Origin: Candidatus Margulisiibacteriota bacterium
Lineage (GTDB): Bacteria; Margulisbacteria; WOR-1; XYC2-FULL-46-14
NCBI GenBank assembly: GCA_042563095.1
Contig: JBHPMS010000002.1
Coordinates: forward strand, 5,551-69,550
Length of the DNA stretch: 64,000 bases
Direction of reading: 5' to 3'
The number at the start of each line of letters is the position of its first letter. The first letter of the stretch is position 1. Positions 22,476 through 59,212 of the stretch are shown piece after piece. A program made the translations under genes and the position numbers. The notes under the pieces are model-generated. The model was given only the letters and a program-made list of their open reading frames with translations. It ran no database searches and was not told where the DNA came from.

Positions 22476-24986
22476 ATGAGTAGATTAGCAAATGTAGGAC
22501 TCGAGAAATTTGGTGGTAGTAAACTGGGACAACAGCAATTAAAATTTATACATAAACATCAACAGAGTGGGGCCATGACAACCGTTAGGCAACAATCTGA
22601 TTTAAGAAGGACTTTTCTAGAAAATGTTGCTGCAAACCATCCTGCCGGGATTCCTGTGATGTTGTTTAATCTTAAAAATCCATATGAGCAGACAATTATA
22701 TTAGATTCAAAGAAACTAGAAAAATACAATATCGATCAGTATTTTGCAGATTTTAAAAGATTGGCTCCCAAGGCAACAGCCGGACTAAGAGAAACTTATG
22801 ATGTATTAAATTGGAATAACCCAAATTATTTGTATAATCCAGTATTTTTAACACTATTAATAGAAGCTGAAGCTAGATTTATTAAAGAACAACATACTGT
22901 CAAGTCAGAAATGTTAAAAGGAATTGATCTATCTGCAAAGGCGGCGGAAGTAGAAAAGGAATTATCACCTAATACTATATCTACAATAAGAGAAGTGTTT
23001 GAAGGAAAGAGCCTGGTTGAAATATTGAAACTTTTAAGAGATAAACCAATGAAGGTTATGGGGAAAGAAGTTAGACCTCAAACTGATCAGATGCTTGAGC
23101 TGGAAGTACGACTAATGGCTGAAAACGGGATCGCCGTCATTACATCGGAAAAATTTAGCGATACCACAAATATATACCTCACATCTTTCCTCTGCTTTTT
23201 ATTGGGATCAGATGGTGGTACTTATTACACCCCAAGTCATAGTTCAGTTTATGTGCTTGGGAGAAAGGTTCTTTCTCAAGAAGGAGCCCAATTATTGCCG
23301 GAGCTTTATAACCGCTTTATTGAGATACTAGAAGAAATAATTGGAGTTGCAAAAGATAAAGGACTGATGGTTAGTCTTGGAGCAAGAGGGGGCGAAAATA
23401 TTTACAATACTTTGTCATATGAGAGGACTGCAAAATTATTTGCAAAAGCAATGAATCATGATCCAAAAACCATTGATATGATTAATGAAGCAGCAGATAA
23501 AGGACTTAGAATAACACTTAATACCCTATCCGGAAGTGCTGCAAAAAGTTTAGCTTCTCAATTAGTAGCATTTGGAGTTGACAAAAAAGTATTTCAACCA
23601 TTATGGGAAAAAGAAGATTCCTATTTTAATGCCGGTTATGTTGCTGGCTTTAAAGATGGAGAATATTTTGTTGATCATTTAGGAGTTGATACTTCGGCTC
23701 CAAAAGTTGTACAGCAAATTCCTTATGCAGAAAAACTCAAAAATGCACCAATTGGTCGAATGGTCTACGAGTGTGATCCGGATAATGATCGCTTTTTAGT
23801 TAAACAGGTCTTAGCAGAGGATGCGATCCCGCTTTGTGAAGTATATGGGATAGATTATTATAAGCTGGGGAATGGTAGAATTTTGGTTGCCCCAAGCCCT
23901 AATAAAATATTTTTAATGCTGGATATTGCCGATTATGAAAGGATGAAGGCTTCAGGTGAATGGGAGAAATATCATTTCTTATATTTCCCAACCTATGTCT
24001 CATCAGCTGCCTGGGTTGAATTTGCAAATTATTTGGCAAGAAAAGAAGGAAATATCTCAACCTTCTTATGCCGGGTTGGATTTAAAAACTTTAATCAGGC
24101 CTTAACCCAAATTCAGGATTGGTGGTTTAATAGACCGGAGGAACCAACTCTTACAATTAAACCTCAATTGGGGGATCCTATTACCCTTAACCGGGACAAA
24201 CCATTACGAGTCCTAAGTAAAGAAGAAGAAAGTGGCGGAAGAACAGCTGGCCAGGCAGCAGCATTAACTAATATTCTTGGTGAAAGGATGCTTTCATTGC
24301 CAGAAAAAGCTGTTGGAGATGCCTTGATGGCACATCTGGCTGATATGGCAAGAAGATATCTGGAGAAGCAGGAATTACGTTTACCAAGTATAATTGATAC
24401 TGCTTATACAAAATATCAATTAATATCTAAAATTGACTATCGCTTGGATATTCTTCATGGTGACCAGGGTATCATTGCACAGGTTGGTCCAGAAAAAGCA
24501 GCAAAATTAAAATCACAGGCTGGTGCAGAAAAAGCCAACTTTAATAACTTTTTCTTTTCATTGGGTATTGCAGAACAAACAGCAAAACTAAGCCTTGATA
24601 AAATAAGGGGTATTTTAAAAGCAGTGCTCCCTGAATGGTCTGATACCTGGAATTGCCTGGACAGTATTCAATATGTAGAAGAAGAGTTAACCGCTACTCA
24701 AACACGACCGGAGGGAGTGGTGATGTCATTTAATGCTAAGGATGGAAAAACTCCTTTGGTGACTAAATTTAAATTCAGGCCTTCCGGCACAGATCCCTTA
24801 AAGAGTAAAGTCTATATTGATGCTGTTGTATTAAGAATGGAACAAATAAGAGAAATTGAAGACCGCAATAATCACCTAAAACGCCTTGATCTTTATGGTG
24901 TACTTGATCATTACGGGATAGAATATGCAGAAGCTAAACCAGCTGAAGCAGGTCAGATTGAATTAAGACCAGTAGCGTTAAATTAG
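22476..24986 (+). CDS. Atypically long (836 aa) alpha-D-phosphohexomutase-superfamily protein (phosphoglucomutase-like)
   Basis: The four ordered PGM/PMM motifs are recognisable. They are the phosphoserine loop YYTPSHSS (compare TASHNP), the metal loop ECDPDNDRF (DGDGDR), the sugar loop EEESGG (GEESGG) and the phosphate loop RPSGTDP (RPSGTEP). It lies between pfkA and pgi. Confidence 0.55.
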   Translation: MSRLANVGLEKFGGSKLGQQQLKFIHKHQQSGAMTTVRQQSDLRRTFLENVAANHPAGIPVMLFNLKNPYEQTIILDSKKLEKYNIDQYFADFKRLAPKATAGLRETYDVLNWNNPNYLYNPVFLTLLIEAEARFIKEQHTVKSEMLKGIDLSAKAAEVEKELSPNTISTIREVFEGKSLVEILKLLRDKPMKVMGKEVRPQTDQMLELEVRLMAENGIAVITSEKFSDTTNIYLTSFLCFLLGSDGGTYYTPSHSSVYVLGRKVLSQEGAQLLPELYNRFIEILEEIIGVAKDKGLMVSLGARGGENIYNTLSYERTAKLFAKAMNHDPKTIDMINEAADKGLRITLNTLSGSAAKSLASQLVAFGVDKKVFQPLWEKEDSYFNAGYVAGFKDGEYFVDHLGVDTSAPKVVQQIPYAEKLKNAPIGRMVYECDPDNDRFLVKQVLAEDAIPLCEVYGIDYYKLGNGRILVAPSPNKIFLMLDIADYERMKASGEWEKYHFLYFPTYVSSAAWVEFANYLARKEGNISTFLCRVGFKNFNQALTQIQDWWFNRPEEPTLTIKPQLGDPITLNRDKPLRVLSKEEESGGRTAGQAAALTNILGERMLSLPEKAVGDALMAHLADMARRYLEKQELRLPSIIDTAYTKYQLISKIDYRLDILHGDQGIIAQVGPEKAAKLKSQAGAEKANFNNFFFSLGIAEQTAKLSLDKIRGILKAVLPEWSDTWNCLDSIQYVEEELTATQTRPEGVVMSFNAKDGKTPLVTKFKFRPSGTDPLKSKVYIDAVVLRMEQIREIEDRNNHLKRLDLYGVLDHYGIEYAEAKPAEAGQIELRPVALN

Positions 24987-25037: not shown

Positions 25038-29309
<4,272 letters not shown>

Positions 29310-43772: not shown

Positions 43773-45131
43773 GTGGCAAAAATGAGTAAAAACAAACCGA
43801 ATGTGTTAGTTATAGATGATGAAGAGAATATGTTGTTAACCTATAAATCAATTCTAAAAAAGAAGTACAATACGGTATTAGTTAACCGAGGACAAGCGGG
43901 AATAGATAAGGTAAATGAGCAAGAATTTGCAGCAGTAATTGTTGACCTAAAAATGCCAGACATGGATGGACTAGAGGTATTACGTAAAATAAAAGAGATC
44001 AATCCAGATCAAAATGTGGTTATGTCCACGGCTATGAATGATGCAAAAATTGCAATCCAGGCGATCCGTAATGGAGCTCTTGAGTATATAACCAAACCAT
44101 TTGAAATTGATGAATTAGTTGCACTGATGGATAAGGTTATGGAAAGGAATAATCTAATAAAAGAGAACTCGTATCTTAAGACAGTTTTACAGGAACAAAA
44201 AACCTATTTTGACCTGATCGGACAAACCCAGGTAATGCAAAATATTTTTATGACAATTGAAAACATCAGTGCTGCAGACAGCACCGTCTTAATCACCGGT
44301 GAATCCGGAACCGGTAAGGAGTTAGTGGCTCACGCCATTCACAATAAAAGCAACCGCAAGGCCCGGCCATTTGTAATTGTTAATTGTGCAGCTATCCCAG
44401 AAAATTTGCTCGAATCAGAACTGTTTGGCCACGAAAGAGGTGCTTTTACCGGTGCTTTGGAGCGAAAAATTGGTAAATTTGAACTGGCCGATGGCGGTAC
44501 AATATTTTTGGACGAGATCGGTTGTATGCCGCTGTCAATGCAGTCAAAACTATTACGGATCGTACAGGATAGTAAGATTAGCAGAGTGGGCGGCAAAAAT
44601 CCGATCGAAGTTGATGTCCGGATATTAGCTGCTACAAATGCAAATATCGAGACTGAGATCAAGAAAGGTAATTTTAGAGAAGACCTTTTTTACCGGCTAA
44701 ACGTAATCCCAATAAAACTCCCCCCGTTAAGGGAGAGAAAAAATGATATTCCTCTTTTTGTCAGCTACTTTCTTAATAAATTCAACCGCGATCTCAAAAA
44801 AGCTATTAAAACAATCAGCCCTGACGCAATCAGATCACTTTTGGAATACAATTGGCCCGGGAATGTAAGGGAGTTGCAAAACCTGATTGAGCGGGCAGTA
44901 GCATTAAATGGGAACAAAGATGTCATTGATAGTATCCAGGTCAGTACTTCTTCAAAATCAGAAGATTCGAAAAGAAAAAAAAATTTGAAAGAAGCTACTG
45001 CTGAATTTGAAAAAGAATACATCAAAAGTGCGTTAAAAACTGTTAATGGCAACCAATCGGCAGCTGCGCGCTTATTAGAAATTCACCGGACTACCCTGAT
45101 CTCAAAAATGGAACTGCTCGGTTTAAAATAA
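43773..45131 (+). CDS. Sigma-54-dependent response regulator (NtrC family: REC-AAA+-Fis HTH)
   Basis: REC domain (VLVIDDE...D at VDLKMPDMDG), Walker A GESGTGKE, the GAFTGA motif (ERGAFTGAL) and a C-terminal HTH. Confidence 0.9.
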   Translation: MAKMSKNKPNVLVIDDEENMLLTYKSILKKKYNTVLVNRGQAGIDKVNEQEFAAVIVDLKMPDMDGLEVLRKIKEINPDQNVVMSTAMNDAKIAIQAIRNGALEYITKPFEIDELVALMDKVMERNNLIKENSYLKTVLQEQKTYFDLIGQTQVMQNIFMTIENISAADSTVLITGESGTGKELVAHAIHNKSNRKARPFVIVNCAAIPENLLESELFGHERGAFTGALERKIGKFELADGGTIFLDEIGCMPLSMQSKLLRIVQDSKISRVGGKNPIEVDVRILAATNANIETEIKKGNFREDLFYRLNVIPIKLPPLRERKNDIPLFVSYFLNKFNRDLKKAIKTISPDAIRSLLEYNWPGNVRELQNLIERAVALNGNKDVIDSIQVSTSSKSEDSKRKKNLKEATAEFEKEYIKSALKTVNGNQSAAARLLEIHRTTLISKMELLGLK

Positions 45132-46160
45132 AAGTGTAAAGCGAGTCCCCTCTCCAACCTTTGATTTTACCTGAACGTCACCAGCATGTTCTTTAATAAT
45201 CTTGTAAGTAATCGCAAGCCCCAGCCCGGTTCCACTAGTTTTAGTAGAAAAGAAAGGATCAAAGATATTCTTTATCTTATCCTCTGGAATCCCCAGTCCG
45301 TTATCAAGTATATCAATCTTTACTTTTTCAGCTGCCTTTGAAGTTTTCACTTCTAGCTTACCCCCTTTTGGCATGGCCTGAATCGCATTTAATATGAAAT
45401 TGGTCATAACTTGCTTTATCTGCTGTTGGTCTAGATCCCGATTGGGGACCTCTCCCAGTTTCTTTTCTAATTTAATCCCTTTTTTCATCATTTCTGATTC
45501 AAAAAGTTTTAAAACGTGTTCTAATACTTCATTAATATTAAGTGGAGCTTTTTGCGGTGTTGGTGGCTTTGAATAAGTCAACAAATTTTGGACCAGCTTG
45601 TTGATCCGATCTAACTCTTTTGGCACGACCTTTTTAAAATCTTCCAGGGATTCTTTATCGTTATCCTTGATTGCACTTTCCAGTATCTGGGTCATCCCTT
45701 TGATTGACGCTAAAGGATTTTTGATCTCGTGTGCCATTCCGGCTGCAACTGTTCCAAGTGATGCCAATTTATCAGCATGGAGCAGGCGGGCCTGGGCCTC
45801 CATCATTTCTTCATGCAATTGTGCTTTCTGTATTGCAATAGCTAATTGATTAGAAAGGGTGTTTAAAAAAATCAAATCCTCTTCATCATACATCTCTTCA
45901 TCTTCTTTTGGGCCAAGCGTGAACAGGCCAATCATCTTTTCTTCGGTATTTAGCGGAACGCAAACTTCGCCCCCTGCCTTTTTAAGTTCATCCCATGCCC
46001 TGGTGTCTGGCCCTAGGCTCAACTCTTCAAGCAGAAATGCCCGCTTAGTCTTTTTTAAACACTCAACCAGTGCACTATCCTTTTTTATAATATTACTTCC
46101 TATTTCTAACACTAGCTGCTCCTCTAAAGTGATAATAGCACGCAAGTATTTTAACTGCAA
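45123..46160 (-). CDS. Cytoplasmic sensor histidine kinase (HisKA + HATPase_c)
   Basis: H-box AHEIKNPL, and an ATP lid DNGLGIPEDK...GTGLGLAI. There is no TM segment. It is convergent with, and overlaps, the NtrC-like regulator. Confidence 0.85.
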   Translation of the reverse strand: MQLKYLRAIITLEEQLVLEIGSNIIKKDSALVECLKKTKRAFLLEELSLGPDTRAWDELKKAGGEVCVPLNTEEKMIGLFTLGPKEDEEMYDEEDLIFLNTLSNQLAIAIQKAQLHEEMMEAQARLLHADKLASLGTVAAGMAHEIKNPLASIKGMTQILESAIKDNDKESLEDFKKVVPKELDRINKLVQNLLTYSKPPTPQKAPLNINEVLEHVLKLFESEMMKKGIKLEKKLGEVPNRDLDQQQIKQVMTNFILNAIQAMPKGGKLEVKTSKAAEKVKIDILDNGLGIPEDKIKNIFDPFFSTKTSGTGLGLAITYKIIKEHAGDVQVKSKVGEGTRFTLLF

Positions 46161-49764: not shown

Positions 49765-50405
49765 AACCACTGGCTTATGAACTTAAATCCCAACCATTTA
49801 TGGACTTTGATTTTTATGTTGACCAGAATGTGCTTATCCCCCGGCCGGAAACTGAACAGTTAGTTGAAAAAGCAATCGAAGAAATTAAAAATTTAAAATT
49901 AAAAATTAAAAACTTGGAGCTATTAGATCTTGGGACTGGATCGGGCTGTATTGCGGTCTCACTGGCAAAGTATTTTTCACATGTTAAAATTACGGCGGTT
50001 GATTCATCGCCGGATGCGCTTGCTGTTGCCAGGAAGAATGCAAAAATCCATAACGTTTATGATCGGATTGAGTTTATAGAAGGCAACCTGCTCGAACCTC
50101 TGGCCGGCCGGAAGTTTGATCTAATTATCAGTAATCCACCCTATATCCCAAGTAAAGATATTGAAACACTTGATTCTGGCGTCAAAGAGTGGGAACCGCG
50201 AAAAGCATTGGACGGCGGTGTTGATGGATTAGACTATATTCGTAAGCTTATTCAAGAAGGACCGGAATATTTAAACCCGGGCGGCATGCTTATTTTTGAA
50301 ATGGGTTATGGGCAGGCTGAAGCTATACGACGGCTATGCCCGGGAGTGGAAATAATAAAAGACTATGCAGGAATCGATAGAATCGCAATTAAAAGAGTCA
50401 GTTAG
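49761..50405 (+). CDS. prmC: Release-factor glutamine N5-methyltransferase PrmC (short form)
   Basis: VLIPRPETE, DLGTGSGCIA and NPPY motifs. It is 214 aa and lacks the usual roughly 70-aa N-terminal domain. Confidence 0.8.
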   Translation: MKPLAYELKSQPFMDFDFYVDQNVLIPRPETEQLVEKAIEEIKNLKLKIKNLELLDLGTGSGCIAVSLAKYFSHVKITAVDSSPDALAVARKNAKIHNVYDRIEFIEGNLLEPLAGRKFDLIISNPPYIPSKDIETLDSGVKEWEPRKALDGGVDGLDYIRKLIQEGPEYLNPGGMLIFEMGYGQAEAIRRLCPGVEIIKDYAGIDRIAIKRVS

Positions 50406-50916
50406 GATATTAAAAACCGGAGGAGTGATTATTTTCCCAACTGACACAGTCTACGGCATTGGTTGTGCGTATGATAATAAAGCAGGGATTGAGCGAATTT
50501 ATGAGATAAAGAAAAGACCGAAATATAAACCACTACAGATATTAATTTCAGATATTAAACAACTCGATGCTCTGGCAGCCGAAATCCCGGCTGCAGCTCA
50601 AGAATTGATGGAGAAGTATTGGCCGGGAGCGTTGACCCTGATACTCAAGACTAAGGGCCAAAGACTAAACACAATCGGGATCAGGATGCCAAATCATCCT
50701 ATTCCTTTACAAATAATAAAAGAACTCGGGAAACCATTAGCGGCAACCTCGGCCAATCTTTCCGGAGAGCCAGATCCCTCCTCCCCGGCTGAGATAACAA
50801 TAAAGGCTGATTATTTAATTGATGCTGGAAAGATTGAAAATCCACAAGCCTCCTCGGTGATTGATGTGACCTGTAATCCTCCAAAAATCCTCAGAAAAGG
50901 CCGGATCAAAATTTAA
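50365..50916 (+). CDS. tsaC: L-threonylcarbamoyladenylate synthase TsaC/YrdC
   Basis: IIFPTDTVYGIGC...KYWPGALTLIL...TSANLSGEP. Confidence 0.8.
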   Translation: MQESIESQLKESVRILKTGGVIIFPTDTVYGIGCAYDNKAGIERIYEIKKRPKYKPLQILISDIKQLDALAAEIPAAAQELMEKYWPGALTLILKTKGQRLNTIGIRMPNHPIPLQIIKELGKPLAATSANLSGEPDPSSPAEITIKADYLIDAGKIENPQASSVIDVTCNPPKILRKGRIKI

Positions 50917-50917
50917 A

Positions 50918-51085
50918 CTGAAATTTTTAGATTTATAGCAAGATAAATATGCGGGAATGGAGAAGGAGAAAAGGGTTTAAATAAATGTTTGGAACTGGAC
51001 CAATAACGTTAGCTGCAAGAATAAAAAGCAGTATTTGCCATAGCAACTACAAAGAAGGCGCTGGGGCTAATCCTCCAAAGCAAGG
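50918..51085. repeat. Direct repeat copy 1 (promoter region + RBS + first 28 codons), near-identical to 52225..52392
   Basis: CAAGATAAATATGCGGGAATGGAGAAGGAGAAAAGGGTTTAAATAAATGTTTGGAACTGGACCAATAACGTTAGCTGCAAGAATAAAAAGCAGTATTTGCCATAGCAACTACAAAGAAGGCG... has only a few mismatches against copy 2. Confidence 0.85.
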
Positions 51086-51530
51086 ATATTCTCTTCAGAT
51101 TGAGCATATTGAAAGCTTACGAGGAAAAGACTTTAGATTTGACCAGCTACGCAGAACCGCACTGGCAGAACTTATTATTAAACGAACTTTGATAGTTGAT
51201 GATGATCTGCTCGTTAGCAAATCAACTATGAGAATATTGAAATTGATCCTAAAAGATGCAGAAGTTGAAATAATAACCTGCGATCAGAATGAAGTTGATG
51301 AACATCTTAAGACCCAATTCGATCTGTTAATTACTGATTACGAAATGCCTGGAATGAATGGAGATGAAGTGATTAGAAAATACAAGGAATCAGGACAGGG
51401 AGGACTTATAATTGGCCATAGCGGGGATAGTGACAATCTTGACTTTTTTTATAAGGCAGGAGCAGACCTGGCCGGCGTAAAACCACTTTCGGTTAGTTTT
51501 TGGAAAAAGATATTCGGGTCAAGAGATTAA
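50985..51530 (+). CDS. Single-domain response regulator (CheY-like REC) with a 70-aa N-terminal leader (gene A of the REC operon)
   Basis: REC residues are intact: LIVDDD, phospho-acceptor DLLITDYEMPGMNG, IIGHSGD and GVKP. The N-terminal MFGTGPITLAARIKSSICHSNYKEGAGA is shared with gene C. Confidence 0.7.
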   Translation: MFGTGPITLAARIKSSICHSNYKEGAGANPPKQGYSLQIEHIESLRGKDFRFDQLRRTALAELIIKRTLIVDDDLLVSKSTMRILKLILKDAEVEIITCDQNEVDEHLKTQFDLLITDYEMPGMNGDEVIRKYKESGQGGLIIGHSGDSDNLDFFYKAGADLAGVKPLSVSFWKKIFGSRD

Positions 51531-51535
51531 GGAAG

Positions 51536-52201
51536 ATGTTATTCATAAGCGGGATCAGATACGGAATAACTGCTCAAAGGGTTAAACTTAGTCTTTTTAA
51601 AACCAGTCATTATTGTCCTTCACAATACGATAAGTGGTCTTTTCTGGGCAAACGGCAGAAGGTAAACGGCACCAACCACTATGTTATAGACAATATTCCG
51701 TTATTTGCAGAAAACAGCCGGCAAACAATCAAACAAATATCCAGAGACTTGCTATGGAGAACAACGTTTTTACTCCACTGCCAAAAAAAACATTTTTTTA
51801 TTAATCAAGGAAAACTTACAAATAGCGGAAAATTTGAGCTAGCCAATAAAGCCGCTAATTTGTTTTGTCCCTTAAAAATACCAGGAATCCCAAAAAGCAG
51901 TTCAATTTCTGAAGTCATTGAGGAGTTGTCTGAAGGATTAGAGCGTCAAATTGAAGCAGAGATTTTCAATTATCTGCTTAAGAAATTTCGGACTGTTTTT
52001 GGGGAAAAAACAGAAATAAGTAATATTCTAGCAATTGAAAAGGATGAAAAAGATATTTACTTTCTTCTTGAATTATCTTCTGATAATAAGGGCCTCCATC
52101 AGCATCGTTTTAAACTGGGCAATAATCATGGAATATTTTTTAGACTAACCTTAAATGAACAAAATCATAGTCTGCGACTGGATCAGGATAAAAAAATCTA
52201 G
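51536..52201 (+). CDS. Hypothetical protein (gene B), no recognisable motifs
   Basis: ATG 6 nt after gene A's stop, with an AAGGAAG RBS. 221 aa. Confidence 0.45.
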   Translation: MLFISGIRYGITAQRVKLSLFKTSHYCPSQYDKWSFLGKRQKVNGTNHYVIDNIPLFAENSRQTIKQISRDLLWRTTFLLHCQKKHFFINQGKLTNSGKFELANKAANLFCPLKIPGIPKSSSISEVIEELSEGLERQIEAEIFNYLLKKFRTVFGEKTEISNILAIEKDEKDIYFLLELSSDNKGLHQHRFKLGNNHGIFFRLTLNEQNHSLRLDQDKKI

Positions 52202-52224
52202 TTTTTCTTTTCCACTGTTTTTAC

Positions 52225-52392
52225 CTGAAATTTTTCTGATTTGTACAAGATAAATATGCGGCAATGGAGAAGGAGAAAAGGGGGTTAAATAAATGTTCAG
52301 AACCGGACCAACAACGTTAGCTGCAAGAATAAAAAGCAGTATTTGCCATAGCAACTTCAAAGAAGGCGGTGGAGCTAAGCCTGCAGCAAGGG
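52225..52392. repeat. Direct repeat copy 2
   Basis: See copy 1. The offset is 1307-1308 bp. Confidence 0.85.
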
Positions 52393-53483
52393 TATTCTTG
52401 GCTGATGCACATGGCGGGTATGAAATCAAAAAGGCGGTCGTTCTGGATAATGAAGTTGCATTTCAATCCGAAGCGCGGAGTATTTTGGCCCCCTATATTA
52501 AAGTGAACTGTTATGACTGTGATGCTGTAATGGAGGCCGCTGAATCCGGAAAGTCTGAAAACTGTCTCTATTTTATTAGCATTGATTTATTACTCGAAAA
52601 AAAAATTAATCTCAGTAAAAAAATTAAAGAACTCCGTAAACATTGGGGAAATAGCTCATACCTCATTGGCTTATCATCACGCAGTCCCCAATCATTAACA
52701 AGAGAAATCATTAAAGCAGGTTTTGATAGAATTATTAAAAAAATTGATTTCTCACAATCTGTTAAAAATGCTTTAAAGAATTGCCATGTTATCGATATGG
52801 GAGGAATTACTCCTGATCAGGTAATTGAGGAGCCAGTTTTAGTAAGGCATGATTCGGCAGACCCCCCCAGCATCTTCGCACGACCGATTACAACAAAAGC
52901 CTGCCAAATAACAGCAAAACAAAAAGAAAACAAAACAGTATATTTATATAAACTGGCGAGCGAAAAGGGGAAAAGCAGCAAGGCAAATGCCCCGCCTCCT
53001 ATAGAGGGGACAGTAGAATTTGAAAAATATAGTTCGAATCATGGTCTGGCAAACCGAATTCTTATTATAAGCCCGCCATCCGATAATAATTTAAGAAAAC
53101 AACTTAAACGAAGGTTTTCATTTGAACTTGGGAAAACTTTAAATGAAATCACCTTAACCCTGCTTGATTCGGCGGAGGAGCAGAAAGTAAATATCGTTTA
53201 TACTAATACCACAGATGAGTTAACGGGAGTTGTTTATCAGTTATCTTATGAGGAACGGCTGCCTGAGGTAATATTTGTCTATTCTAACCCCACTGTCGAA
53301 ATAAGCGGAACAGAAATGGTTAAACGTATCCGTGAATTAAAGAAGGAATGTTATATAATTGGCGTTGCTAAATGTCAAACCGACCCGGTCAAATTTTACA
53401 ATGCTGGAGCAGACCAAACCATATTCGAAGATAAGCTGCCTGAATTTATTAGACGTTTCTTTGTTGAAAAAAAGGAAGAGTAA
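52293..53483 (+). CDS. Leader-REC-linker-pseudoREC protein (gene C)
   Basis: It has the same 28-aa N-terminus as gene A. The REC at about residues 45-165 is VVLDNE...YFISIDLLL...LSS...IIKKI. The C-terminal REC-like fold has Tyr in place of the acceptor Asp (EVIFVYSNPTVEISGTEMVKRIRE...FEDKLP). Confidence 0.6.
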   Translation: MFRTGPTTLAARIKSSICHSNFKEGGGAKPAARVFLADAHGGYEIKKAVVLDNEVAFQSEARSILAPYIKVNCYDCDAVMEAAESGKSENCLYFISIDLLLEKKINLSKKIKELRKHWGNSSYLIGLSSRSPQSLTREIIKAGFDRIIKKIDFSQSVKNALKNCHVIDMGGITPDQVIEEPVLVRHDSADPPSIFARPITTKACQITAKQKENKTVYLYKLASEKGKSSKANAPPPIEGTVEFEKYSSNHGLANRILIISPPSDNNLRKQLKRRFSFELGKTLNEITLTLLDSAEEQKVNIVYTNTTDELTGVVYQLSYEERLPEVIFVYSNPTVEISGTEMVKRIRELKKECYIIGVAKCQTDPVKFYNAGADQTIFEDKLPEFIRRFFVEKKEE

Positions 53484-53484
53484 T

Positions 53485-55062
53485 ATGCATTTAAGATTAG
53501 GAAAGGTTGTTAGAACAAGTGCTTTTTTTATACCTGCTGATGGGAATGGCGGGGAGTTTGGAAAGGGAGGATTAAAATCAACTAAACCTGCTCAGCTTCC
53601 CAGCGATGTAATTGTACCAATCAAATCAGAAGCCCATTCTGAGTTTGTTGACAGCCTTAGTATTACAGATGATATAACAAAATTACCAACTAAGGTCCTT
53701 CCCCTAGATATAAGAAATAACATTGCCAAAGAAGAATGTAATATTAGAAGGATAATACATCAAATAGTAACTGGATACTACTCGAATGAATCCTATTCTA
53801 CTATAAAGCACCTACTAGAATTGGGTGCCGGAAAAGATATATCAGATTTATTTGGAAGAATATCTATAACCAGAATAAACTATGGCCGTGTTGTAGGAGA
53901 TGTGGCTTTTTTACTTAACACTGCTGAGTGTGAAAAGATAATTGGGGCTGGCAAAGCAAAACTACAAAAAATGAGAGATGAATCGGAGATCAAGCTGAGA
54001 GCACAAGCAGCCAAGGTTTCCACTGCAGCGCCGTTTAAAACTAGAGTAGAAGAAATAATTCAATTCTGGCTGGATATCGGTAAACCACAAAATGTTTCAT
54101 TAATAAATAGCATTTTTAGCAATAATGATAAAGCTGCAGCAAAAAATGAGTTTATATTATTTTTAAAGAATGAAAAGATGCTCCGATTCCAAATAGAATT
54201 GGGTGCTGATCAAGAGAAATTCAATTGCTTTTCTAAACTTAATGATTTAGTAATAAGTTATGCCAGATGGATACAGGATCCAAAAAGTACCATACCCTAT
54301 ATCACAGCAACTATCGAACGAAGCCATTTCAGATGGGTACAAGGCCTTAAAAGCATCAAACCCAGTATTGAAGCTACAATTGGGCATTTTAAAGATTATT
54401 TCGATATGCTTGATAATTTGGTAGGCGAGAGCAAAAATAATTATAGTAATGAATTCGACAAAGAAGAGCTAGAACGTATTATAATTAATACCAAAATGGC
54501 CACAAAAACAATTTATCATTATTCTGCGAATGAAGACAAAGCCCGAATCGTTTCATTTCTAATGGACCACTTTTCTGCCAATTTTGGAAATAGAAAATCA
54601 GCCGACATCGCCCTGGAAATAGTGGAAGAGATCTCAAAACAAGAGCAAGCAACTGTTCTCAGCCACATTATTGACCACCTTGGTGATAGAAAGGATGACT
54701 TTGTAATTTTGCTAGCAAACATTGTAACCAGTAAAAACACAGACGTTTCTTCCCCTGCTATTACTAACATACTTGCCACAATAATTCCAATTCACCCAGA
54801 TACAGCGAAGGATTATTTGCGAATACTCTGTTCTAAGATATTTGGCCCAAATAGAATATTGGATTTTCTTGAAAACCAACACCCCCTTTTCTGGCAAAAT
54901 ATAATTGACAGATTAAAAAATGGAGACACCTGTGTTGTAGTTAAATATTTGCAAGCATTTCACACTAATTATCAAGAGCATTCAAACGAAGATAATAGTA
55001 CTACATATGCCGGTGTATTTAATCTGAATAAAAAGGATTATATAACTATAATAAGAGGTTAA
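53485..55062 (+). CDS. Hypothetical 525-aa protein (gene D), predicted all-alpha, no motifs
   Basis: ATG 1 nt after gene C's stop with an AAAGGAAG RBS. The track ORF starts upstream in another part of gene C. Confidence 0.45.
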   Translation: MHLRLGKVVRTSAFFIPADGNGGEFGKGGLKSTKPAQLPSDVIVPIKSEAHSEFVDSLSITDDITKLPTKVLPLDIRNNIAKEECNIRRIIHQIVTGYYSNESYSTIKHLLELGAGKDISDLFGRISITRINYGRVVGDVAFLLNTAECEKIIGAGKAKLQKMRDESEIKLRAQAAKVSTAAPFKTRVEEIIQFWLDIGKPQNVSLINSIFSNNDKAAAKNEFILFLKNEKMLRFQIELGADQEKFNCFSKLNDLVISYARWIQDPKSTIPYITATIERSHFRWVQGLKSIKPSIEATIGHFKDYFDMLDNLVGESKNNYSNEFDKEELERIIINTKMATKTIYHYSANEDKARIVSFLMDHFSANFGNRKSADIALEIVEEISKQEQATVLSHIIDHLGDRKDDFVILLANIVTSKNTDVSSPAITNILATIIPIHPDTAKDYLRILCSKIFGPNRILDFLENQHPLFWQNIIDRLKNGDTCVVVKYLQAFHTNYQEHSNEDNSTTYAGVFNLNKKDYITIIRG

Positions 55063-55065
55063 ACC

Positions 55066-56703
55066 ATGTCTATTCATAGAATATATAGATCACCAAGATG
55101 CAGGGATACAAGGGAACTGGTTGCTCCGCGGCATATGGAGGCAAGATTAACAAGAGATGATTTATTTAAAAGCAGTGGATTAGTGGCGGCCAGAGACGAT
55201 AATGATTTATCTGGTGGGATTGCCAACACTAACCCACTCACTCTATTATTAAGAGTTAAGAATCGTCATCTTCTAATAAATGATATTTTAGTTTATAGCG
55301 GCGATGAGAGTTTTTGCAATGTCACAAACATGGTGTTGCAAGAATTAAAAGAAAGGCATAATTTTGGTTATAAATTTAAAGTTGTAAATGATAGCATAAG
55401 TGCGCTTGATTACCTCAAAAAACCAACAGGTGACAGGCCGGACCTGATTATCTGCGGCGATGATGAGTTGGGATCTATTTCTTATTGTCTGGGGCCACCT
55501 ACTCAAAGGCCCTGCATCATCTGTTGCGTTGATGATTTAATGAATGTTTCATCGCAGAAAAGTAATGAATTACAAAATGAGGGAGTTGTATTGCCGATTA
55601 ACCAAGACCATCTGCCTTTATATATTGTCAATGCATTTAGACAGCAATACCATGCTGGACCAGAAAATTCAGCAACTCAAACGTTAGATAATCCTGGTTT
55701 TGATGTTACTGTTGATACACCTATAAACGGGAAGCCAGAATCCCTTGTTGATATGAGAACCGGAAAATTTAGAAATATCCTGGTAATAAGTAGAGACATC
55801 CCACTAATAGAATCAATTAGAAGCAACTTGAGGTCCACCCGGCCTCGCATTCAATCCACACAAAATAATAGGATTCCTTTGATCGACCAGGCAGCTGCTG
55901 CTCTTTTTCTTGATGAGCCTGACCTGGTATTAGTTGATTTACAAAATCCAGATGCGATTGACATAATCGAAAAACTAAGGTCAATAGAGAATCTTTTTAT
56001 AAAAAGCCAACGCAAATTTTGGCTGGGTGGCATTAGCAAAACAGGGCTGAGTCAAGAGGCAAAGGTAAATCTATCGCAATTAAGTGATTCAATAAATTTT
56101 ATTTATGAGGAACCCCGGTTTGGCTCGGATCTTTTTCGCACCCTTACCGAATCAGATAGTTTATTTAAAAGATCAACCAGCAAGGAATTGGCCGCCATTG
56201 GAACAAACCAGGTTTTGATCAGTGAATCTTATCATAAACCGGAACGCCCAGAAAAAGTTAGAAATATTTTAATGGTTACTAATATTTATGATCAACATTC
56301 AATCTCGCATATAAAAAATATCTTTAACAAGCTAAAAAAAGAATTTGTAATTAACTCATTATTTAATGTTGACTCACAAATCATTCTAGGTAAAGAACAA
56401 AAAATGATTGAATTAAGCACTACCGGTCAGTCTGATTCTGCAGTCAATATTTACACGGTATATTTAAAACAATTTAAGGACTTTGCTTTGGCCAGAATCC
56501 ATAGATATATTACTGCATATGTGAGGGGTCTTGAAATTGATATGATATTTATGCAGGATAAGACTTTTGCTGAATTACTTAGAAAAAAGGAAAATTATCG
56601 GGGCTATATTATTGATACCTCTAATGAAGTCCAGAATGCTGATTTTGACTGTGCAATAACATCAAATCCAGCTTTATTTCTAAAAGTTTTATTTATAGCC
56701 TAA
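55066..56703 (+). CDS. Protein with two degenerate REC-like domains plus an unknown 200-aa C-terminal domain (gene E)
   Basis: REC-like 1 is HLLINDILVY...RPDLIICGDDELGS. REC-like 2 is NILVISRDIP...PDLVLVDLQNPDAIDIIEKLRSIE. It has no HK, Hpt or DNA-binding motif. Confidence 0.45.
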   Translation: MSIHRIYRSPRCRDTRELVAPRHMEARLTRDDLFKSSGLVAARDDNDLSGGIANTNPLTLLLRVKNRHLLINDILVYSGDESFCNVTNMVLQELKERHNFGYKFKVVNDSISALDYLKKPTGDRPDLIICGDDELGSISYCLGPPTQRPCIICCVDDLMNVSSQKSNELQNEGVVLPINQDHLPLYIVNAFRQQYHAGPENSATQTLDNPGFDVTVDTPINGKPESLVDMRTGKFRNILVISRDIPLIESIRSNLRSTRPRIQSTQNNRIPLIDQAAAALFLDEPDLVLVDLQNPDAIDIIEKLRSIENLFIKSQRKFWLGGISKTGLSQEAKVNLSQLSDSINFIYEEPRFGSDLFRTLTESDSLFKRSTSKELAAIGTNQVLISESYHKPERPEKVRNILMVTNIYDQHSISHIKNIFNKLKKEFVINSLFNVDSQIILGKEQKMIELSTTGQSDSAVNIYTVYLKQFKDFALARIHRYITAYVRGLEIDMIFMQDKTFAELLRKKENYRGYIIDTSNEVQNADFDCAITSNPALFLKVLFIA

Positions 56704-56727
56704 AAACTCACCGCAACTTCGTAAAAT
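56699..56727. repeat. Left 29-bp direct repeat flanking the AbiE cassette (relic of the OMP 3' end, encoding FYEVAVSF*)
   Basis: CCTAAAAACTCACCGCAACTTCGTAAAAT versus CCTAAAAACTCAACGCCACCTCGTAGAAT at 58057..58085 (25/29 identical). Confidence 0.75.
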
Positions 56728-56729
56728 AA

Positions 56730-57431
56730 TTATTCGCTATCCCTCATCAATTTGAGCAGAAAAATCGTCTCATCTAAAAGCTTTTGCTTAACCCAGACTT
56801 TCTGCTTTTTATCTAACAGCTCACCAATACCGGATAAAATATTACGGCTGCTCATTTTGGAGAGTAGGTCAATGCATTCTTCAAGAAACTTTTTAAAAGT
56901 CTTTTTTACACGTTGTTCTACCAGTTCTTTGTTAATCGGCCAATTGTTATTGAAGAAAAACCAGACATCATAAATATCGCGGTTGGTCCTTCCAATCCTC
57001 TCATACATCGCAACCAATTTCTGAGCCGCCATATCCGGTTTGACCATTACCTTCATCGAAATACCAAGATAGGCCTTAACTTCATAACTTGATCCAAAGG
57101 CTCTGCGGTTTATCTCAACTTTAATATTCTGCGCGCCTTTTTCTTTATCTTTATAAGAGAGCAGAAAAAAAAGATTAAACCTTTTCTTTTCTGCTTTTTT
57201 TACGGAGCCGTAGCTTTCCAAAATCTTTCTGATCCGCTCAAAGATAACCTGCTCCCTACCCTTATCCAGCAGATCAAAATCAAGATCGACCGAAAAGCGG
57301 CTGAGATTATAAAAAAGATATGCAGCTGTGCCTCCCTTAAAACCCAAAAGCGGACCAACTGTTGTGTCAGTAAAAATATCTTTTAGGATCCTGATCAGAA
57401 GATTTTTATGCTTTGATATATCAAGTGACAT
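56730..57431 (-). CDS. abiEii: Nucleotidyltransferase toxin AbiEii (DUF1814)
   Basis: LLGFKGGTAAYLFYNLSRFSVDLDFD, a polymerase-beta-like NTase motif. Confidence 0.8.
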   Translation of the reverse strand: MSLDISKHKNLLIRILKDIFTDTTVGPLLGFKGGTAAYLFYNLSRFSVDLDFDLLDKGREQVIFERIRKILESYGSVKKAEKKRFNLFFLLSYKDKEKGAQNIKVEINRRAFGSSYEVKAYLGISMKVMVKPDMAAQKLVAMYERIGRTNRDIYDVWFFFNNNWPINKELVEQRVKKTFKKFLEECIDLLSKMSSRNILSGIGELLDKKQKVWVKQKLLDETIFLLKLMRDSE

Positions 57432-57996
57432 TTTTTTGATACCTACTAACTATTTGAGCCATACGTTTGTTGCCATCGTAGGTCGGCAGAATTTCTTGTA
57501 CCCGCTCCCAATTTATAGCTGAAAGATTATCAAAGTGATAATCCTGATTCAAATAAAGTAGATCCAAAAACGCCCTCTCCGAAGACGCAATGCTGTAGTT
57601 ATCCATTATCTTGATGCCAGCACTATTTGTTAATATCGGAGCTTTAACCGTCTTATAGTTGTAAGTCTGTCCGTCACAAACAATGTCCTTAGACTGATAT
57701 GAAGCCACAAATATTTGGCTGTAATATTGGAAAATAATGCCGGCCTTTGTTAAAACAGTCTCAAAACTTATATATGATGGTGTATATATTTTGGTGGCAA
57801 GCTCGAATTTATCATATTTTTTATCTTTTGCATACAATCCCCGCCGAATAGAATAAAGACCACCGTGTTTTGTGTAGTAATTTGCTCTGGCCTTTGCTGT
57901 TTTTTTATCGATATTCCCCCAAAGTAAAATGAGGTCCTTAAAAGAAAAAACAGTTTTATCTGACCTTAATAATTGGTTTAAAAATCCTCTTTCCAT
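57421..57996 (-). CDS. abiEi: AbiEi-like antitoxin/transcriptional regulator
   Basis: 191 aa, immediately upstream of and overlapping AbiEii. The size and arrangement are typical of type IV AbiE. Confidence 0.65.
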   Translation of the reverse strand: MERGFLNQLLRSDKTVFSFKDLILLWGNIDKKTAKARANYYTKHGGLYSIRRGLYAKDKKYDKFELATKIYTPSYISFETVLTKAGIIFQYYSQIFVASYQSKDIVCDGQTYNYKTVKAPILTNSAGIKIMDNYSIASSERAFLDLLYLNQDYHFDNLSAINWERVQEILPTYDGNKRMAQIVSRYQKNVT

Positions 57997-58002: not shown

Positions 58003-58039
58003 AGAGTCAAAGGTAAGGAATATTCTTACCTTTGGCTCT
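58003..58039. promoter_or_regulatory. Inverted repeat AGAGTCAAAGGTAAGG-AATATT-CCTTACCTTTGGCTCT directly upstream of abiEi (candidate operator and bidirectional terminator)
   Basis: 14-15 bp arms with one mismatch. AbiEi-family antitoxins bind inverted repeats in their own promoter. Confidence 0.45.
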
Positions 58040-58056
58040 TATTATACCATATTAAC

Positions 58057-58085
58057 CCTAAAAACTCAACGCCACCTCGTAGAAT
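58057..58085. repeat. Right 29-bp direct repeat (authentic OMP 3' end)
   Basis: See 56699..56727. Confidence 0.75.
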
Positions 58086-59212
58086 TGAGTCTCCTCCACC
58101 TGCCCCGTAGCCGGATTATAAGCTTTGCGATAATGCGTAATTACTTTTGTAAACGGATTGACGTAATAACCGATCTTGGCACCCATCACCGCCCCATTTT
58201 CTAAGGTTAAAGAATTAAAATCAACAAAGTTTGGCTGCTGATAATAAGCGGACACTTCGATATCTTCTCTTAAATACGATTCAGCCAGTGCTGCAATTGC
58301 ACCATTGCCCCCATTATAGTTTTCATAAGAAATGTCTAAGTTCAATACTTTTGGCAGCTTTGCTTTAAAATCAGCAAAATAACCATCACGGCGAATACCC
58401 TGGGCGGCAACTGAACTTATGTCGGTCGGATTGATCTCATATTCCTCATTAAAATAACCAGGAACAAAATTCCCTCCCACAAAACGGTATCCAGTATCAA
58501 ATGCAGCAACAAAGCCGAGCATTTGGGTTGACCAATCAATACCAACTGAAGCTGCTTTCCCGTGATTATTTAACTGAGCCGCCTCAGCATAACCTTCAAA
58601 CCCAAAAGGAAATGGGACCGTAGCATCAACTGCAATTCCTCCCTGTGGAGCGAAACTTCTGATTGTACCATCCGATTGTCTAACTTGTACACCATCCTCA
58701 TCAGTTACAAATGATTGACCTAAAATTAACATCGGATGGACTCTTTGCGTTAGACGGATTGCATAAACATGTGACCAGGTGTTCATAGCATGAAATCCGA
58801 AAATATTGTGGTTATAATAGCCTTTTAATCCCATCTGGTCATTATAACTAAGGCCAGGTAATGCAACTCGAGTAGCATAATTTTTCATCAACAAACCGTG
58901 CCCCAGAGTAATCCGATCCAGTATTCCATAACGCAAACCTTTCTGCCCATCATCATATTCGGCATAACGGAATACAACCGATTCATAATCTGCTGGGCGG
59001 ACATTTCCAAGCGGAACATTAACATCCAATCCTAAACCCAACGGACCAAGCTTGAGGTCCGGCCGCCATGACAAACTGCCTACCTCAACTGTTCCAGCTT
59101 TTACATACCCTGCACTAACGGTATTAGAAACTTTGTCAAACATACCAGCTTCGGCTGAAAATGACCAAGATGCAAGAAACAAGATACAAATAATTACCAA
59201 TATATTTTTCAT
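58058..59212 (-). CDS. Outer-membrane beta-barrel protein (porin-like), signal peptide and C-terminal Phe
   Basis: MKNILVIICILFLASWSFSAEA signal peptide, alternating amphipathic strands, and the protein ends ...YEVALSF. Confidence 0.55.
   Translation of the reverse strand: MKNILVIICILFLASWSFSAEAGMFDKVSNTVSAGYVKAGTVEVGSLSWRPDLKLGPLGLGLDVNVPLGNVRPADYESVVFRYAEYDDGQKGLRYGILDRITLGHGLLMKNYATRVALPGLSYNDQMGLKGYYNHNIFGFHAMNTWSHVYAIRLTQRVHPMLILGQSFVTDEDGVQVRQSDGTIRSFAPQGGIAVDATVPFPFGFEGYAEAAQLNNHGKAASVGIDWSTQMLGFVAAFDTGYRFVGGNFVPGYFNEEYEINPTDISSVAAQGIRRDGYFADFKAKLPKVLNLDISYENYNGGNGAIAALAESYLREDIEVSAYYQQPNFVDFNSLTLENGAVMGAKIGYYVNPFTKVITHYRKAYNPATGQVEETQFYEVALSF

Follow-up and report, generated by a model that had tools for sequence, protein, structure and literature searches.

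A five-gene cluster of receiver-like and orphan proteins, possibly derived from one receiver gene, in a Candidatus Margulisiibacteriota MAG

Our tentative reading of five neighboring genes (A-E) in a Candidatus Margulisiibacteriota MAG is that they form a lineage-specific accessory cluster, which arose from one receiver gene through rounds of duplication and rapid divergence and whose products signal via protein-protein contacts. We give this reading a probability of roughly 40%. A first unit would consist of A, a phosphorylatable single-domain response regulator, together with B. The second would consist of C (a near-canonical receiver plus an Asp-less pseudo-receiver), the helical protein D, and E (three degenerate receiver-like modules), and each unit would open with a promoter/RBS/31-codon module of ~185 bp. 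In the 64,000-nucleotide stretch of DNA that was analyzed (the window), our calls for the five genes are the same as the NCBI gene calls for this MAG:

50985-51530, plus strand: gene A, 181 aa, stand-alone response regulator
51536-52201, plus strand: gene B, 221 aa, orphan
52293-53483, plus strand: gene C, 396 aa, leader, receiver-like module C1, linker, and module C2
53485-55062, plus strand: gene D, 525 aa, orphan, predicted to be mostly alpha-helical
55066-56703, plus strand: gene E, 545 aa, orphan, with three degenerate receiver-like modules
One flank of A-E: prfA-prmC-tsaC
Other flank of A-E: AbiEii/AbiEi, then purH/purN/purM

The genes are co-directional, with gaps of 5, 91, 1, and 3 nt, and the lengths, frame, and tight spacing (except for the 91 nt before C) given in a first-pass annotation of this DNA were confirmed. 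The GC content of the cluster is lower than that of its flanks, and core genes lie on both sides. With this low GC and this site, A-E looks accessory, in agreement with the earlier description of an accessory-looking operon between tsaC and the pur genes.

Both A and C start with a copy of the same 5' module, a DNA direct repeat (D1/D2) of ~185 nt that includes ~70 nt of non-coding sequence upstream of the ATG:

50917-51100, plus strand: module copy 1, ~68 upstream non-coding nucleotides, ~31 codons of A, and ~22 nt
52224-52406, plus strand: module copy 2, most of the 91-nt spacer, ~31 codons of C, and ~22 nt

These were the only two copies that blastn found in the window, with a core of 133 nt (50939-51070 against 52246-52378) that is 92.5% identical (E 6e-47), and pairwise alignment revealed a perfect 44-nt block between them. 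The upstream part of copy 1 carries a Shine-Dalgarno-like run (GGAGAAGGAG) and, by eye, weak sigma-70-like hexamers; a search of this copy against Rfam gave no match, and it showed no excess of RNA structure (z -0.13). At the protein level, the first 30 residues of A and C are 83% identical, and the rest of both proteins is unalignable. The shared start of a 70-aa leader that had been described as common to A and C was thus recovered, but it covers the first 31 codons only and is a repeat at the DNA level. Over these 31 codons, A and C differ by 3 synonymous and 6 non-synonymous changes; codons 8-21 do not differ at any of their 42 nt, and the similarity runs on beyond a 2-nt indel, where the frames of A and C differ. 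Judged by these alignments, what A and C share at their start is a promoter-plus-5' module that was recently duplicated as DNA, and not a conserved protein domain. Because the repeat precedes both A and C, the cluster seems to be built of two units in tandem, A-B and C-D-E. The high identity at the start of two otherwise unalignable proteins might also be read as a targeting, secretion, or packaging signal that tags A and C as cargo. We consider this highly improbable, since the identity is found in the DNA and includes the non-coding upstream part, 14 consecutive codons lack a synonymous change while non-synonymous changes prevail overall (6 versus 3), and the similarity crosses the indel into differing frames. 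Moreover, no hydrophobic signal-like stretch was seen by eye, and the search for other carriers of the leader that had been suggested at first pass found no copies beyond A and C, neither in the window nor in the collections of genomes, metagenomes, and viruses searched.

The sole REC domain in A-E that passes Pfam is that of gene A (Response_reg, PF00072; residues 69-168, E 4.9e-10, 40 bits against a cut-off of 30.2), whose NCBI product name is 'response regulator' and whose NCBIfam matches are confined to the REC region. The protein consists of the duplicated leader (residues 1-31), a linker (32-66), and a canonical receiver (67-181). Alignment to CheY, Spo0F, PhoB, and NtrC places its active site at D72/D73, the acceptor D118, S146, and K166; with the Pfam score above the gathering threshold and all catalytic residues present, the earlier assignment of an intact CheY-like REC to A holds. 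Single-domain response regulators work by contacting other proteins, or serve as phosphorelay intermediates or sinks. Gene A is like CheY, DivK, CpdR, and Spo0F in that its five active-site residues are all present and an output domain is missing, but differs from them in its 66-residue N-terminal extension, half of which is the recently duplicated DNA module. It also lacks their chemotaxis, cell-cycle, or sporulation partners, its neighbors being orphan proteins.

Gene C comprises the leader (residues 1-31), module C1 (~44-165), a linker (~166-260) with a composition that looks low in complexity by eye, and module C2 (~261-390). By alignment, C1 has D52/N53, D98, S128, and K149, and appears to be a near-canonical receiver-like module, while C2, with Y330 at the acceptor position, S/P in place of the acidic pair, A359, and E379, appears to be an aspartate-less pseudo-receiver. 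Because of the Asn at the second acidic position, C1 would itself be a pseudo-receiver by the strict definition (PMC12632262), and it may be unphosphorylatable. The Tyr at the C2 acceptor and the linker had been noted before and were found again, but the 'intact' REC proposed for C1 falls below the curated cut-off and has N53 in its acidic pair. With Pfam, the whole of C gave a sub-threshold REC match (19.5 bits against 30.2, E 1.1e-3, residues 336-377), and hhalign of C against REC gave a P of 0.01. REC-HMM scores of 3.6-3.9 bits for C1 and 5.5-6.0 bits for C2 were reached by ≤3/1000 shuffles and by 0.2-0.5% of natural segments. In addition, C2 matches the REC-type phrog_8810 (E 0.0074), and the Smith-Waterman score of A against C2 was reached by 0.2% of natural segments.

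Tandem arrangements of this kind have precedents. PleD has a REC-REC' adaptor arrangement. DrdR of Xanthomonas is an orphan regulator, an output-less tandem of REC and pseudo-REC that binds and modulates partner proteins (PMC13507683). Like DrdR, C lacks an output domain and combines a probably functional receiver with a putative aspartate-less pseudo-receiver, but the order is reversed, the pseudo-receiver of DrdR being N-terminal. Compared with DrdR and PleD, C further stands apart by having no sequence relation to known families, a ~95-residue low-complexity-looking linker, and two modules that are both below curated REC thresholds.

In gene E, the acceptor position of E1 (~65-200) is uncertain (G131/D132), E2 (~232-360) has kept Asp291 and lost the acidic pair and the Lys (E348), and E3 (~400-545), the module nearest to the REC of A, has Ala484 at the acceptor position. 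Curated REC profiles found nothing in E. With hhalign, residues 274-307 were placed onto REC alpha2-beta3-alpha3 (P 0.002), and the REC-HMM scores of E1 (1.4/7.8 bits) and E2 (10.5/6.9 bits) were reached by 0.07-2.2% of natural segments. E3 was not significant against generic REC profiles; its alignment to residues 38-154 of A scored 51 (z 4.3), a value attained in 4/3000 shuffles and by 0.03% of natural segments. The C-terminal domain of E is therefore most likely a third degenerate REC that is related to that of A. Of the earlier description of E, the two degenerate REC-like domains found weak backing, whereas the C-terminus that had been called unknown aligns to the REC of A. We know of no described architecture in which a protein consists of three pseudo-receiver modules alone.

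The REC-HMM scores above come from two independent, home-made REC profiles, with 2979 natural non-REC segments and composition shuffles as controls. On this scale C1, C2, E1, and E2 were in the top 0.07-2.2% of natural control segments and were matched by ≤7/1000 composition shuffles, and the local alignments of C and E to REC had the right register. With the same two profiles, B, D, and the C linker gave no REC-like score. The first-pass annotation had let its REC-like assignments depend on profile searches, and here the outcome was divided: C and E failed the curated cut-offs, but C1, C2, E1, and E2 ranked near the top of the natural controls with the home-made profiles. We take the REC assignments in C and E to be weakly supported, the likeness being weak but consistent over C1, C2, E1, E2, and E3, and the similarities of A to E3 and to C2 point to paralogy within the cluster. 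Like FrzS, the pseudo-receiver of ShkA, and the N-domain of KaiA, modules C2, E2, and E3 appear REC-like with catalytic residues missing, and like most characterized pseudo-receivers they are orphans; however, Pfam receiver-type models still recognize the known pseudo-receivers, and do not recognize C2, E2, and E3. Orphan pseudo-receivers are common (PMC12632262).

Searches with Pfam, NCBIfam, PADLOC, and PHROGs found no kinase, Hpt, DNA-binding, or enzymatic family in A-E. The earlier statement that output and enzymatic domains are lacking thus stands in the sense that none is recognizable, though for enzymatic domains this is absence of evidence only, orphan sequences being out of reach of profiling. 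CheY, DivK, and CpdR, as well as the tandem REC/pseudo-REC proteins DrdR and PleD, signal by protein-protein contacts. With output domains lacking in all modules, we propose contact-based signaling for A-E as well, and the phosphorylation, interaction partners, and physiological role that we infer are as follows. A (at D118) and probably C1 (at D98) would be phosphorylated by a histidine kinase whose gene lies elsewhere in the genome, and the signal would leave via phosphorylation-dependent protein-protein contacts, for which the pseudo-receiver modules of C and E would offer docking or adaptor surfaces, with B and D as partners or targets. For orphan receivers, kinases are usually encoded elsewhere (PMC12632262).

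Since A stands alone, keeps its active site intact, and has no output domain, and since the cluster lacks a kinase, A-E might also be a phosphate sink or decoy, in which A and C1 would take phosphoryl groups away from a kinase and so damp another pathway, the other proteins being accessory. CheY-type sinks are one precedent, and Detocs, which consists of the kinase DtcA, the buffer receiver DtcB, and the receiver-effector DtcC, is another: DtcB is a stand-alone receiver proposed to absorb stray phosphoryl groups (bioRxiv 10.1101/2023.01.24.525353). We see such a sink as a special case of contact-based signaling and not as an alternative to it, and as unlikely, since one small receiver would suffice instead of five genes with 1,868 codons, at least four modules have lost phospho-accepting or catalytic residues, and an adjacent kinase or effector to buffer is absent.

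The family libraries Pfam, NCBIfam, PADLOC, and PHROGs gave no match to B, D, or E, and B had none in the PDB either, in keeping with its earlier description as motif-free. An exhaustive HMMER search of 1.84 billion representative proteins with B, D, and E (residues 101-545) returned self only, and a word-index search of 5.8 billion proteins with C, D, and E (for C the only large-database search) returned the query itself only. For the cluster as a whole, generic REC matches to A were the only homologues found. The cluster had been called undescribed, and in the literal sense it is: B, D, and E have no relatives among these 1.84 billion proteins. The two structure predictions for the cluster had a pLDDT of 32 and 37, too low for use; the AF2 model of B stays below 45 and is likewise unusable. 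For D, the absence of family matches agrees with the earlier alpha-helical, motif-free description, while the helicity rests on a low-confidence AF2 model that is mostly helical by DSSP. The only Foldseek matches of this model, which were to TPR, HEAT, and designed helical repeats, were all weak (none at E ≤0.001, the best at 5e-3); D is possibly a helical-repeat scaffold.

B starts 5 nt past the stop of A, which suggests translational coupling, and D starts 1 nt past the stop of C. B or D could be a hidden enzyme or transmitter that is invisible to sequence methods, and one of them might be a new kinase or phosphotransferase that feeds A and C in a self-contained phosphorelay. That both are wholly uncharacterized, that each lies directly 3' of a receiver gene with a gap small enough for coupling, and that no conventional partner kinase is nearby would fit this idea. 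Nevertheless, we judge it very unlikely, as HisKA, HATPase, Hpt, and Spo0B-like signals were absent in the library and PDB sequence searches, orphan receivers are usually served by kinases encoded elsewhere (PMC12632262), and positive evidence is nil. The one histidine kinase nearby had been described as already paired with an NtrC-type regulator, and it is indeed the only kinase in the window:

45123-46160, minus strand: GAF-HisKA-HATPase kinase
43773-45131, plus strand: NtrC-type regulator, adjoining the kinase gene

The other side of the cluster is occupied by a toxin-antitoxin pair:

56699-56727, no strand assigned: left 29-nt direct repeat, overlapping the E stop codon; its minus strand reads FYEVAVSF and a stop
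56730-57431, minus strand: AbiEii toxin (Pfam AbiEii E 5e-20; PADLOC E 2.9e-76)
57421-57996, minus strand: AbiEi antitoxin (PADLOC AbiEi E 2.1e-59)
58057-58085, no strand assigned: right 29-nt direct repeat, the true 3' end (FYEVALSF and a stop) of the OMP-like gene
58058-59212, minus strand: OMP-like gene, 384 aa

The two repeats are identical at 25/29 positions (two matches in the window versus 0 expected), and the left one, by its sequence, is what remains of a copy of the OMP-like gene's 3' end. With direct repeats of its own on both sides, the AbiE cassette arrived separately from A-E, which bears out its earlier description as an inserted cassette. Its adjacency to A-E, a single observation, consequently looks incidental, and this weakens the link to phage defense that had been drawn from it. 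In an anti-phage or abortive-infection module, the receiver-like proteins would be sensors and B or D an unrecognized effector; a low-GC accessory island adjoining AbiE, with the orphan status and extreme divergence typical of conflict systems, would be in line with this, and receiver-based defense is known from Detocs. A-E and Detocs share a stand-alone receiver, and A-E lies in an accessory region near a defense gene pair, but A-E lacks both a kinase and a receiver-effector fusion, and PADLOC matched it only in the REC region of A, at 15 bits. Given also that no effector-type domain was found in A-E, and no relatives of the cluster in the viral contigs, phages, or plasmids searched, we regard a defense function as quite improbable.

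Finally, A-E might be evolutionary debris, that is, recently acquired or duplicated genes that are decaying or selectively neutral and serve no coherent function, with the degenerate receiver sites reflecting erosion and not adaptation. B-E are without homologues, so that purifying selection is unevidenced, most receiver-like modules have lost catalytic residues, the GC content is below that of the flanks, and non-synonymous differences in the leader are about twice the synonymous ones. We nonetheless think this unlikely. The five ORFs (181-545 codons) are uninterrupted in DNA of 35-39% GC, starts and stops are tightly spaced (1-5 nt), and A has kept every catalytic residue. With a codon model trained on the housekeeping genes of the window, all five genes scored as coding, with host-like codon usage in the annotated frame only, at a GC3 of 0.28-0.33 versus 0.365 in reference genes. 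These long intact ORFs and the host-like codon usage argue for A-E being expressed genes.

The cluster under study comprises five co-directional genes, A to E, whose coordinates had been proposed in a first-pass annotation made from the sequence alone and were the same in our ORF scan. The encoded proteins are exact matches to the NCBI entries MFC1495906-MFC1495910, each a singleton cluster at 90% identity, and the A-B, B-C, C-D and D-E intergenic gaps are 5, 91, 1 and 3 nt. Outside the cluster, an NtrC-type regulator and a GAF-HisKA-HATPase kinase are the only two-component genes in the 64 kb.

Genes of the cluster (ORF scan) and the other two-component genes of the window.
50985-51530, + strand: gene A, 181 aa
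51536-52201, + strand: gene B, 221 aa
52293-53483, + strand: gene C, 396 aa
53485-55062, + strand: gene D, 525 aa
55066-56703, + strand: gene E, 545 aa
43773-45131, + strand: NtrC-type regulator
45123-46160, - strand: GAF-HisKA-HATPase kinase

The cluster is preceded by prfA, prmC and tsaC and followed by the AbiEii/AbiEi toxin-antitoxin pair, an OMP-like gene of 384 aa and the genes purH, purN and purM; housekeeping genes make up the remainder of the window (secA, prfB-like, glycolysis genes, ligA, infB, nusA, groEL, pur genes and others). We trained a codon model on 23 of the window's housekeeping ORFs, and with it A-E all scored as coding in the annotated frame: their log-likelihood per codon was -3.93 to -3.95, that of the reference genes -3.90 +/- 0.04, and in the shifted frames it fell to -4.2 to -4.6. 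A-E are therefore real genes. That the cluster is non-functional debris seems improbable to us. Both their GC content (34-39% versus 40.5% in the reference genes) and their GC3 (0.28-0.33 versus 0.365) are lower, and the region is therefore compositionally slightly foreign.

Gene A encodes a bona fide stand-alone receiver (REC). Its residues 69-168 match the Pfam receiver family PF00072 with 40 bits (E 4.9e-10), above the curated gathering threshold of 30.2 bits, and alignment to CheY, Spo0F and PhoB places its active site at D72/D73, the acceptor D118, S146 and K166. A REC profile scan of all window ORFs of at least 60 aa matched the NtrC-type regulator and gene A only. Whole C reached a sub-threshold 19.5 bits against PF00072 over residues 336-377, and its second receiver-like module (C2) 13.1 bits in isolation; the first (C1) and the three modules of gene E (E1, E2 and E3) had no match to this family at E <= 10. 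B, D and E were likewise without a match in Pfam, NCBIfam, PADLOC or PHROGs.

We then scored cut-out segments, with every HMMER filter off, against two home-made REC profiles: profile 1 was built from 15 sequences (14 classical regulators and the REC of the NtrC-type regulator in the window), and profile 2 from 10 natural REC domains of unrelated loci. The scores were compared with two nulls, one of 2979 natural non-REC segments, each 140 aa long, and one of 1000 composition shuffles.

Segment scores with REC profiles 1 and 2, and the share of natural segments reaching each score.
C1 (residues 41-170): 3.6 and 3.9 bits; 0.5% and 0.5%
C2 (residues 256-396): 6.0 and 5.5 bits; 0.2% and 0.4%
E1 (residues 56-200): 1.4 and 7.8 bits; 2.2% and 0.1%
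E2 (residues 226-370): 10.5 and 6.9 bits; 0.07% and 0.17%
E3 (residues 391-545): no hit and 0.2 bits; not significant and 5%
C linker: -0.4 and 1.1 bits; 8% and 3%
B and the three thirds of D: negative or no hit with both profiles; 19-100%

Although C1, C2, E1 and E2 are below the curated Pfam threshold, they thus fall within the top 0.07-2.2% of the 2979 natural non-REC segments. The receiver-like calls that the first-pass annotation had made in C and E fail with curated profiles, but rank high among natural segments with the home-made ones. The local alignments were mostly in the correct register, spanning alpha3-beta4-alpha4-beta5-Lys of REC for C1, alpha3-beta4-alpha4 for C2 and alpha2-beta3-alpha3 for E2; the placement of E1 differed between the two profiles, and its register is uncertain. 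Reading active-site positions from these alignments, which are weak in register, C1 has four of the five canonical residues (D52/N53, D98, S128, K149), while C2 is aspartate-less (S/P, Y330, A359, E379), Y330 agreeing with the earlier proposal that its acceptor Asp is replaced by Tyr. With the same caveat of register, E2 keeps D291 and has lost the acidic pair and the Lys (E348), and E3 has A484 at the acceptor position. By the residue criterion of PMC12632262, C2, E2, E3 and C1 would all be classed as pseudo-receivers, as far as such weak registers can be read.

The C-terminal domain of E (E3), to which no kind had been assigned, is unlike the generic REC profile but could be aligned to residues 38-154 of A over 127 columns (score 51, z 4.3), a score reached by 4 of 3000 shuffles and 0.03% of natural segments. 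Paired stretches in this alignment of A and E3 are 'LITDY'/'YITAY', 'GLIIGHS'/'GYIIDTS' and 'DNLDF'/'QNADF'. On this alignment, E most likely ends in a degenerate receiver, its third. A and C2, too, were more similar than the null (0.2% of natural segments). A MAFFT alignment of the five putative REC-like segments showed 9-19% identity, too divergent to serve as a profile. Our reading is that the C and E modules, undetectable singly by standard criteria, would jointly form a diverged paralogous receiver-like set. As a whole, the cluster holds a single real receiver, a receiver-like module that is near-canonical, about four that are degenerate, and two further proteins.

A word-index search of 5.8 billion proteins with C, D and E returned only the query itself. 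When B, D and E(101-545) were concatenated and run exhaustively by HMMER against 1.84 billion representatives, nothing beyond these three proteins was recovered, which makes B, D and E true orphans. For C the homologue search was the word-index one. No relatives came from PDB sequence searches, from scans of viral contigs, or from blastn against plasmids and phages. For the neighboring tsaC (50365-50916), relatives of the product among the retrieved loci were at most 46% identical, the best being 43-46%. This search for TsaC/Sua5-like proteins covered 185,579 species-representative genomes and JGI metagenome contigs and was pattern-seeded, so that relatives may be missed. None of the hits from the genome collection was named Margulisiibacteriota, and none of the best relatives belonged to the same lineage. 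The lineage of this MAG appears to be poorly sampled, and this accounts in part for A-E being orphans.

AF2 models of concatenated C+E (single-sequence) and B+D had pLDDT values of 31.9 and 36.6, too low for use, and Foldseek found no match to them at E <= 0.001. In these low-confidence models, strands and helices alternate by DSSP in C and E (pLDDT 31.9), D is mostly helical and weakly like helical-repeat proteins, and B has a hairpin, long helices and a small sheet (both pLDDT 36.6).

How might such a set of proteins work? Family searches detected no kinase, Hpt or output domain in A-E, as the first-pass annotation had stated, and chemotaxis families (CheA, CheW, MCP, CheB/CheR) were found neither in B-E nor in other window ORFs of at least 150 aa, which speaks against the standard chemotaxis set that it had named as a refuting case. 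Our tentatively preferred reading, to which we give a probability of about 0.4, is that A-E form an auxiliary branch of two-component signalling. In this view a kinase encoded elsewhere in the genome would phosphorylate A and perhaps also C1, and the signal would then be relayed by protein-protein contacts, with the C and E pseudo-receivers as adaptors and B and D as partners. In its contact-based signalling this proposal resembles stand-alone receivers and DrdR (PMC13507683); tandem REC/pseudo-REC regulators such as DrdR signal by protein-protein contacts (PMC13507683), and orphan pseudo-receivers are common (PMC12632262). That the cluster is purely a phosphate sink seems unlikely to us.

We consider it very unlikely that A-E constitute a novel phosphorelay with B or D as the transmitter: no Pfam, NCBIfam or PDB-sequence match to a His transmitter (HisKA, Hpt, Spo0B-like) was found in B, D or E, although a divergent transmitter could escape such sequence searches. 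An Hpt-like 'HLLELGAG' motif spotted by eye in D had no profile support. There is equally little probability that A-E are a self-contained new receiver system, in which B or D would be a novel transmitter or effector and the C/E pseudo-receivers a multi-site sensor or decoy; if this were true, the C/E array might counter phage or mobile-element proteins aimed at two-component signalling. The cluster is best filed with known orphan receiver and pseudo-receiver proteins, and not as a demonstrably new system.

A and C had been described as sharing a leader at the protein level. The similarity is instead a direct DNA repeat (50917-51100 and 52224-52406) that begins in non-coding sequence, some 68 nt before each ATG, and reaches roughly codon 38, with a core of 133 nt at 92.5% identity that includes a 44-nt perfect block; the window holds two copies only. 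Codons 1-31 of A and C differ by 3 synonymous and 6 non-synonymous changes, all 42 nt of codons 8-21 are identical, and the DNA similarity persists for about 22 nt past a 2-nt indel, into differing reading frames, after which A and C are unalignable. The leader is thus a DNA repeat and not a protein domain; the pattern fits a promoter/RBS/5'-coding module copied recently by segmental duplication or gene conversion, and does not fit selection acting on a peptide over the long term. A back-translated LAARIKSSICH pattern had 0 matches in the collections of genomes, metagenomes and viruses. Since a copy of the module precedes both A and C, the cluster is probably composed of an A-B unit and a C-D-E unit, each headed by the same 5' control region, and the repeats, 1308 bp apart, could drive deletion or amplification of the A-B unit. 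The original observation was largely right, apart from two points corrected here, namely what the leader is and what the C-terminal domain of E is, and the interpretation is plausible. A riboswitch or structured leader RNA was rejected as the cause of the repeat (no Rfam hit; folding z -0.13 and +1.14), as was a sigma-54 promoter in the module, considered because of the nearby NtrC-type activator, for which no GG/GC elements at the right spacing were seen by eye. A consensus sigma-70 scan did not flag the module.

The AbiE pair (56730-57996, - strand) matched AbiEii by Pfam (PF08843, E 5e-20) and both AbiEii and AbiEi by PADLOC (E 2.9e-76 and 2.1e-59). Its two genes overlap by 11 nt, and the pair fits a type IV toxin-antitoxin system, with a nucleotidyltransferase toxin and an overlapping antitoxin gene. 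The cassette is bounded by a 29-nt direct repeat (56699-56727 and 58057-58085; 25 of 29 nt identical; two matches in the window versus none expected), which bears out the earlier suggestion of an insertion. This repeat duplicates the last 8 codons and the stop codon of the OMP-like gene. The true 3' end of that gene lies in the right copy (...FYEVALSF*); the left one (FYEVAVSF*), which overlaps the stop codon of E, is a remnant. The flanking repeat and the remnant indicate that A-E were already in position when the cassette inserted at the OMP-like gene's end. This clean insertion signature shows that the 1.3-kb cassette came by itself, and its adjacency says little about the function of A-E.

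This bears on the idea that A-E are an anti-phage defence module. Because AbiE inserted independently and PADLOC yielded no defence system for A-E, this reading is weakened, and we hold it to be quite improbable. The sole PADLOC match was that of A to PDC-M60C (E 0.002, 15 bits), in the REC region. There was no match to Detocs, which consists of a DtcA-type kinase, a DtcC receiver-effector and a DtcB receiver, whereas A-E are without a kinase or effector domain.

A near-perfect palindrome of about 39 nt (58003-58041; AAGAGTCAAAGGTAAGGAATATTCTTACCTTTGGCTCTT) separates the start codon of abiEi from the OMP-like gene's stop codon, just downstream of the best sigma-70-like match of the region (TTGAGT-17-TATAAT with TG, hexamers 58069-58041, - strand). 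It may serve as an operator for AbiEi autoregulation, as a bidirectional terminator, or as both; this palindrome also gave rise to spurious Rfam hits to ctRNA and mir-587. The OMP-like gene itself (58058-59212, - strand, 384 aa) matched no family in Pfam, NCBIfam, PADLOC or PHROGs. By eye, its product has an N-terminal signal peptide (MKNILVIICILFLASWSFSAEA) and ends in ...YEVALSF, typical of outer-membrane beta-barrel proteins, and it looks like an unclassified OMP family.

If functional, the cluster would represent an unusually extreme proliferation and degeneration of receiver domains, with one true receiver and about five eroded copies in three proteins, plus B and D. It would then be a compact natural test-bed for pseudo-receiver signalling, which in bacteria is largely a mystery according to a 2025 review (PMC12632262). 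As a singleton without homologues, from an uncultured Margulisiibacteriota MAG, it teaches nothing by comparison, and its practical value is limited. More solid are two methodological by-products: the finding that a seemingly conserved N-terminal "leader" is in fact a DNA-level duplication of a promoter-plus-5' module, and the clean insertion signature of the AbiE cassette.

Elsewhere in the window, an 836-aa ORF (22476-24986, + strand) lies among glycolytic genes, between two PFK paralogues (19335-20543 and 21206-22189) and PGI (25038-26645); it has no Pfam match at E <= 1e-5 and, by BLASTP, no similarity to A-E. A 205-aa protein (15291-15908, + strand) carries a Schlafen AlbA_2 domain (E 1.3e-19). 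Its gene, located between a phosphoribosyltransferase-domain gene (14592-15287) and a phosphoglycerate mutase gene (15897-17546), may be another small accessory or defence-related gene amid housekeeping genes.
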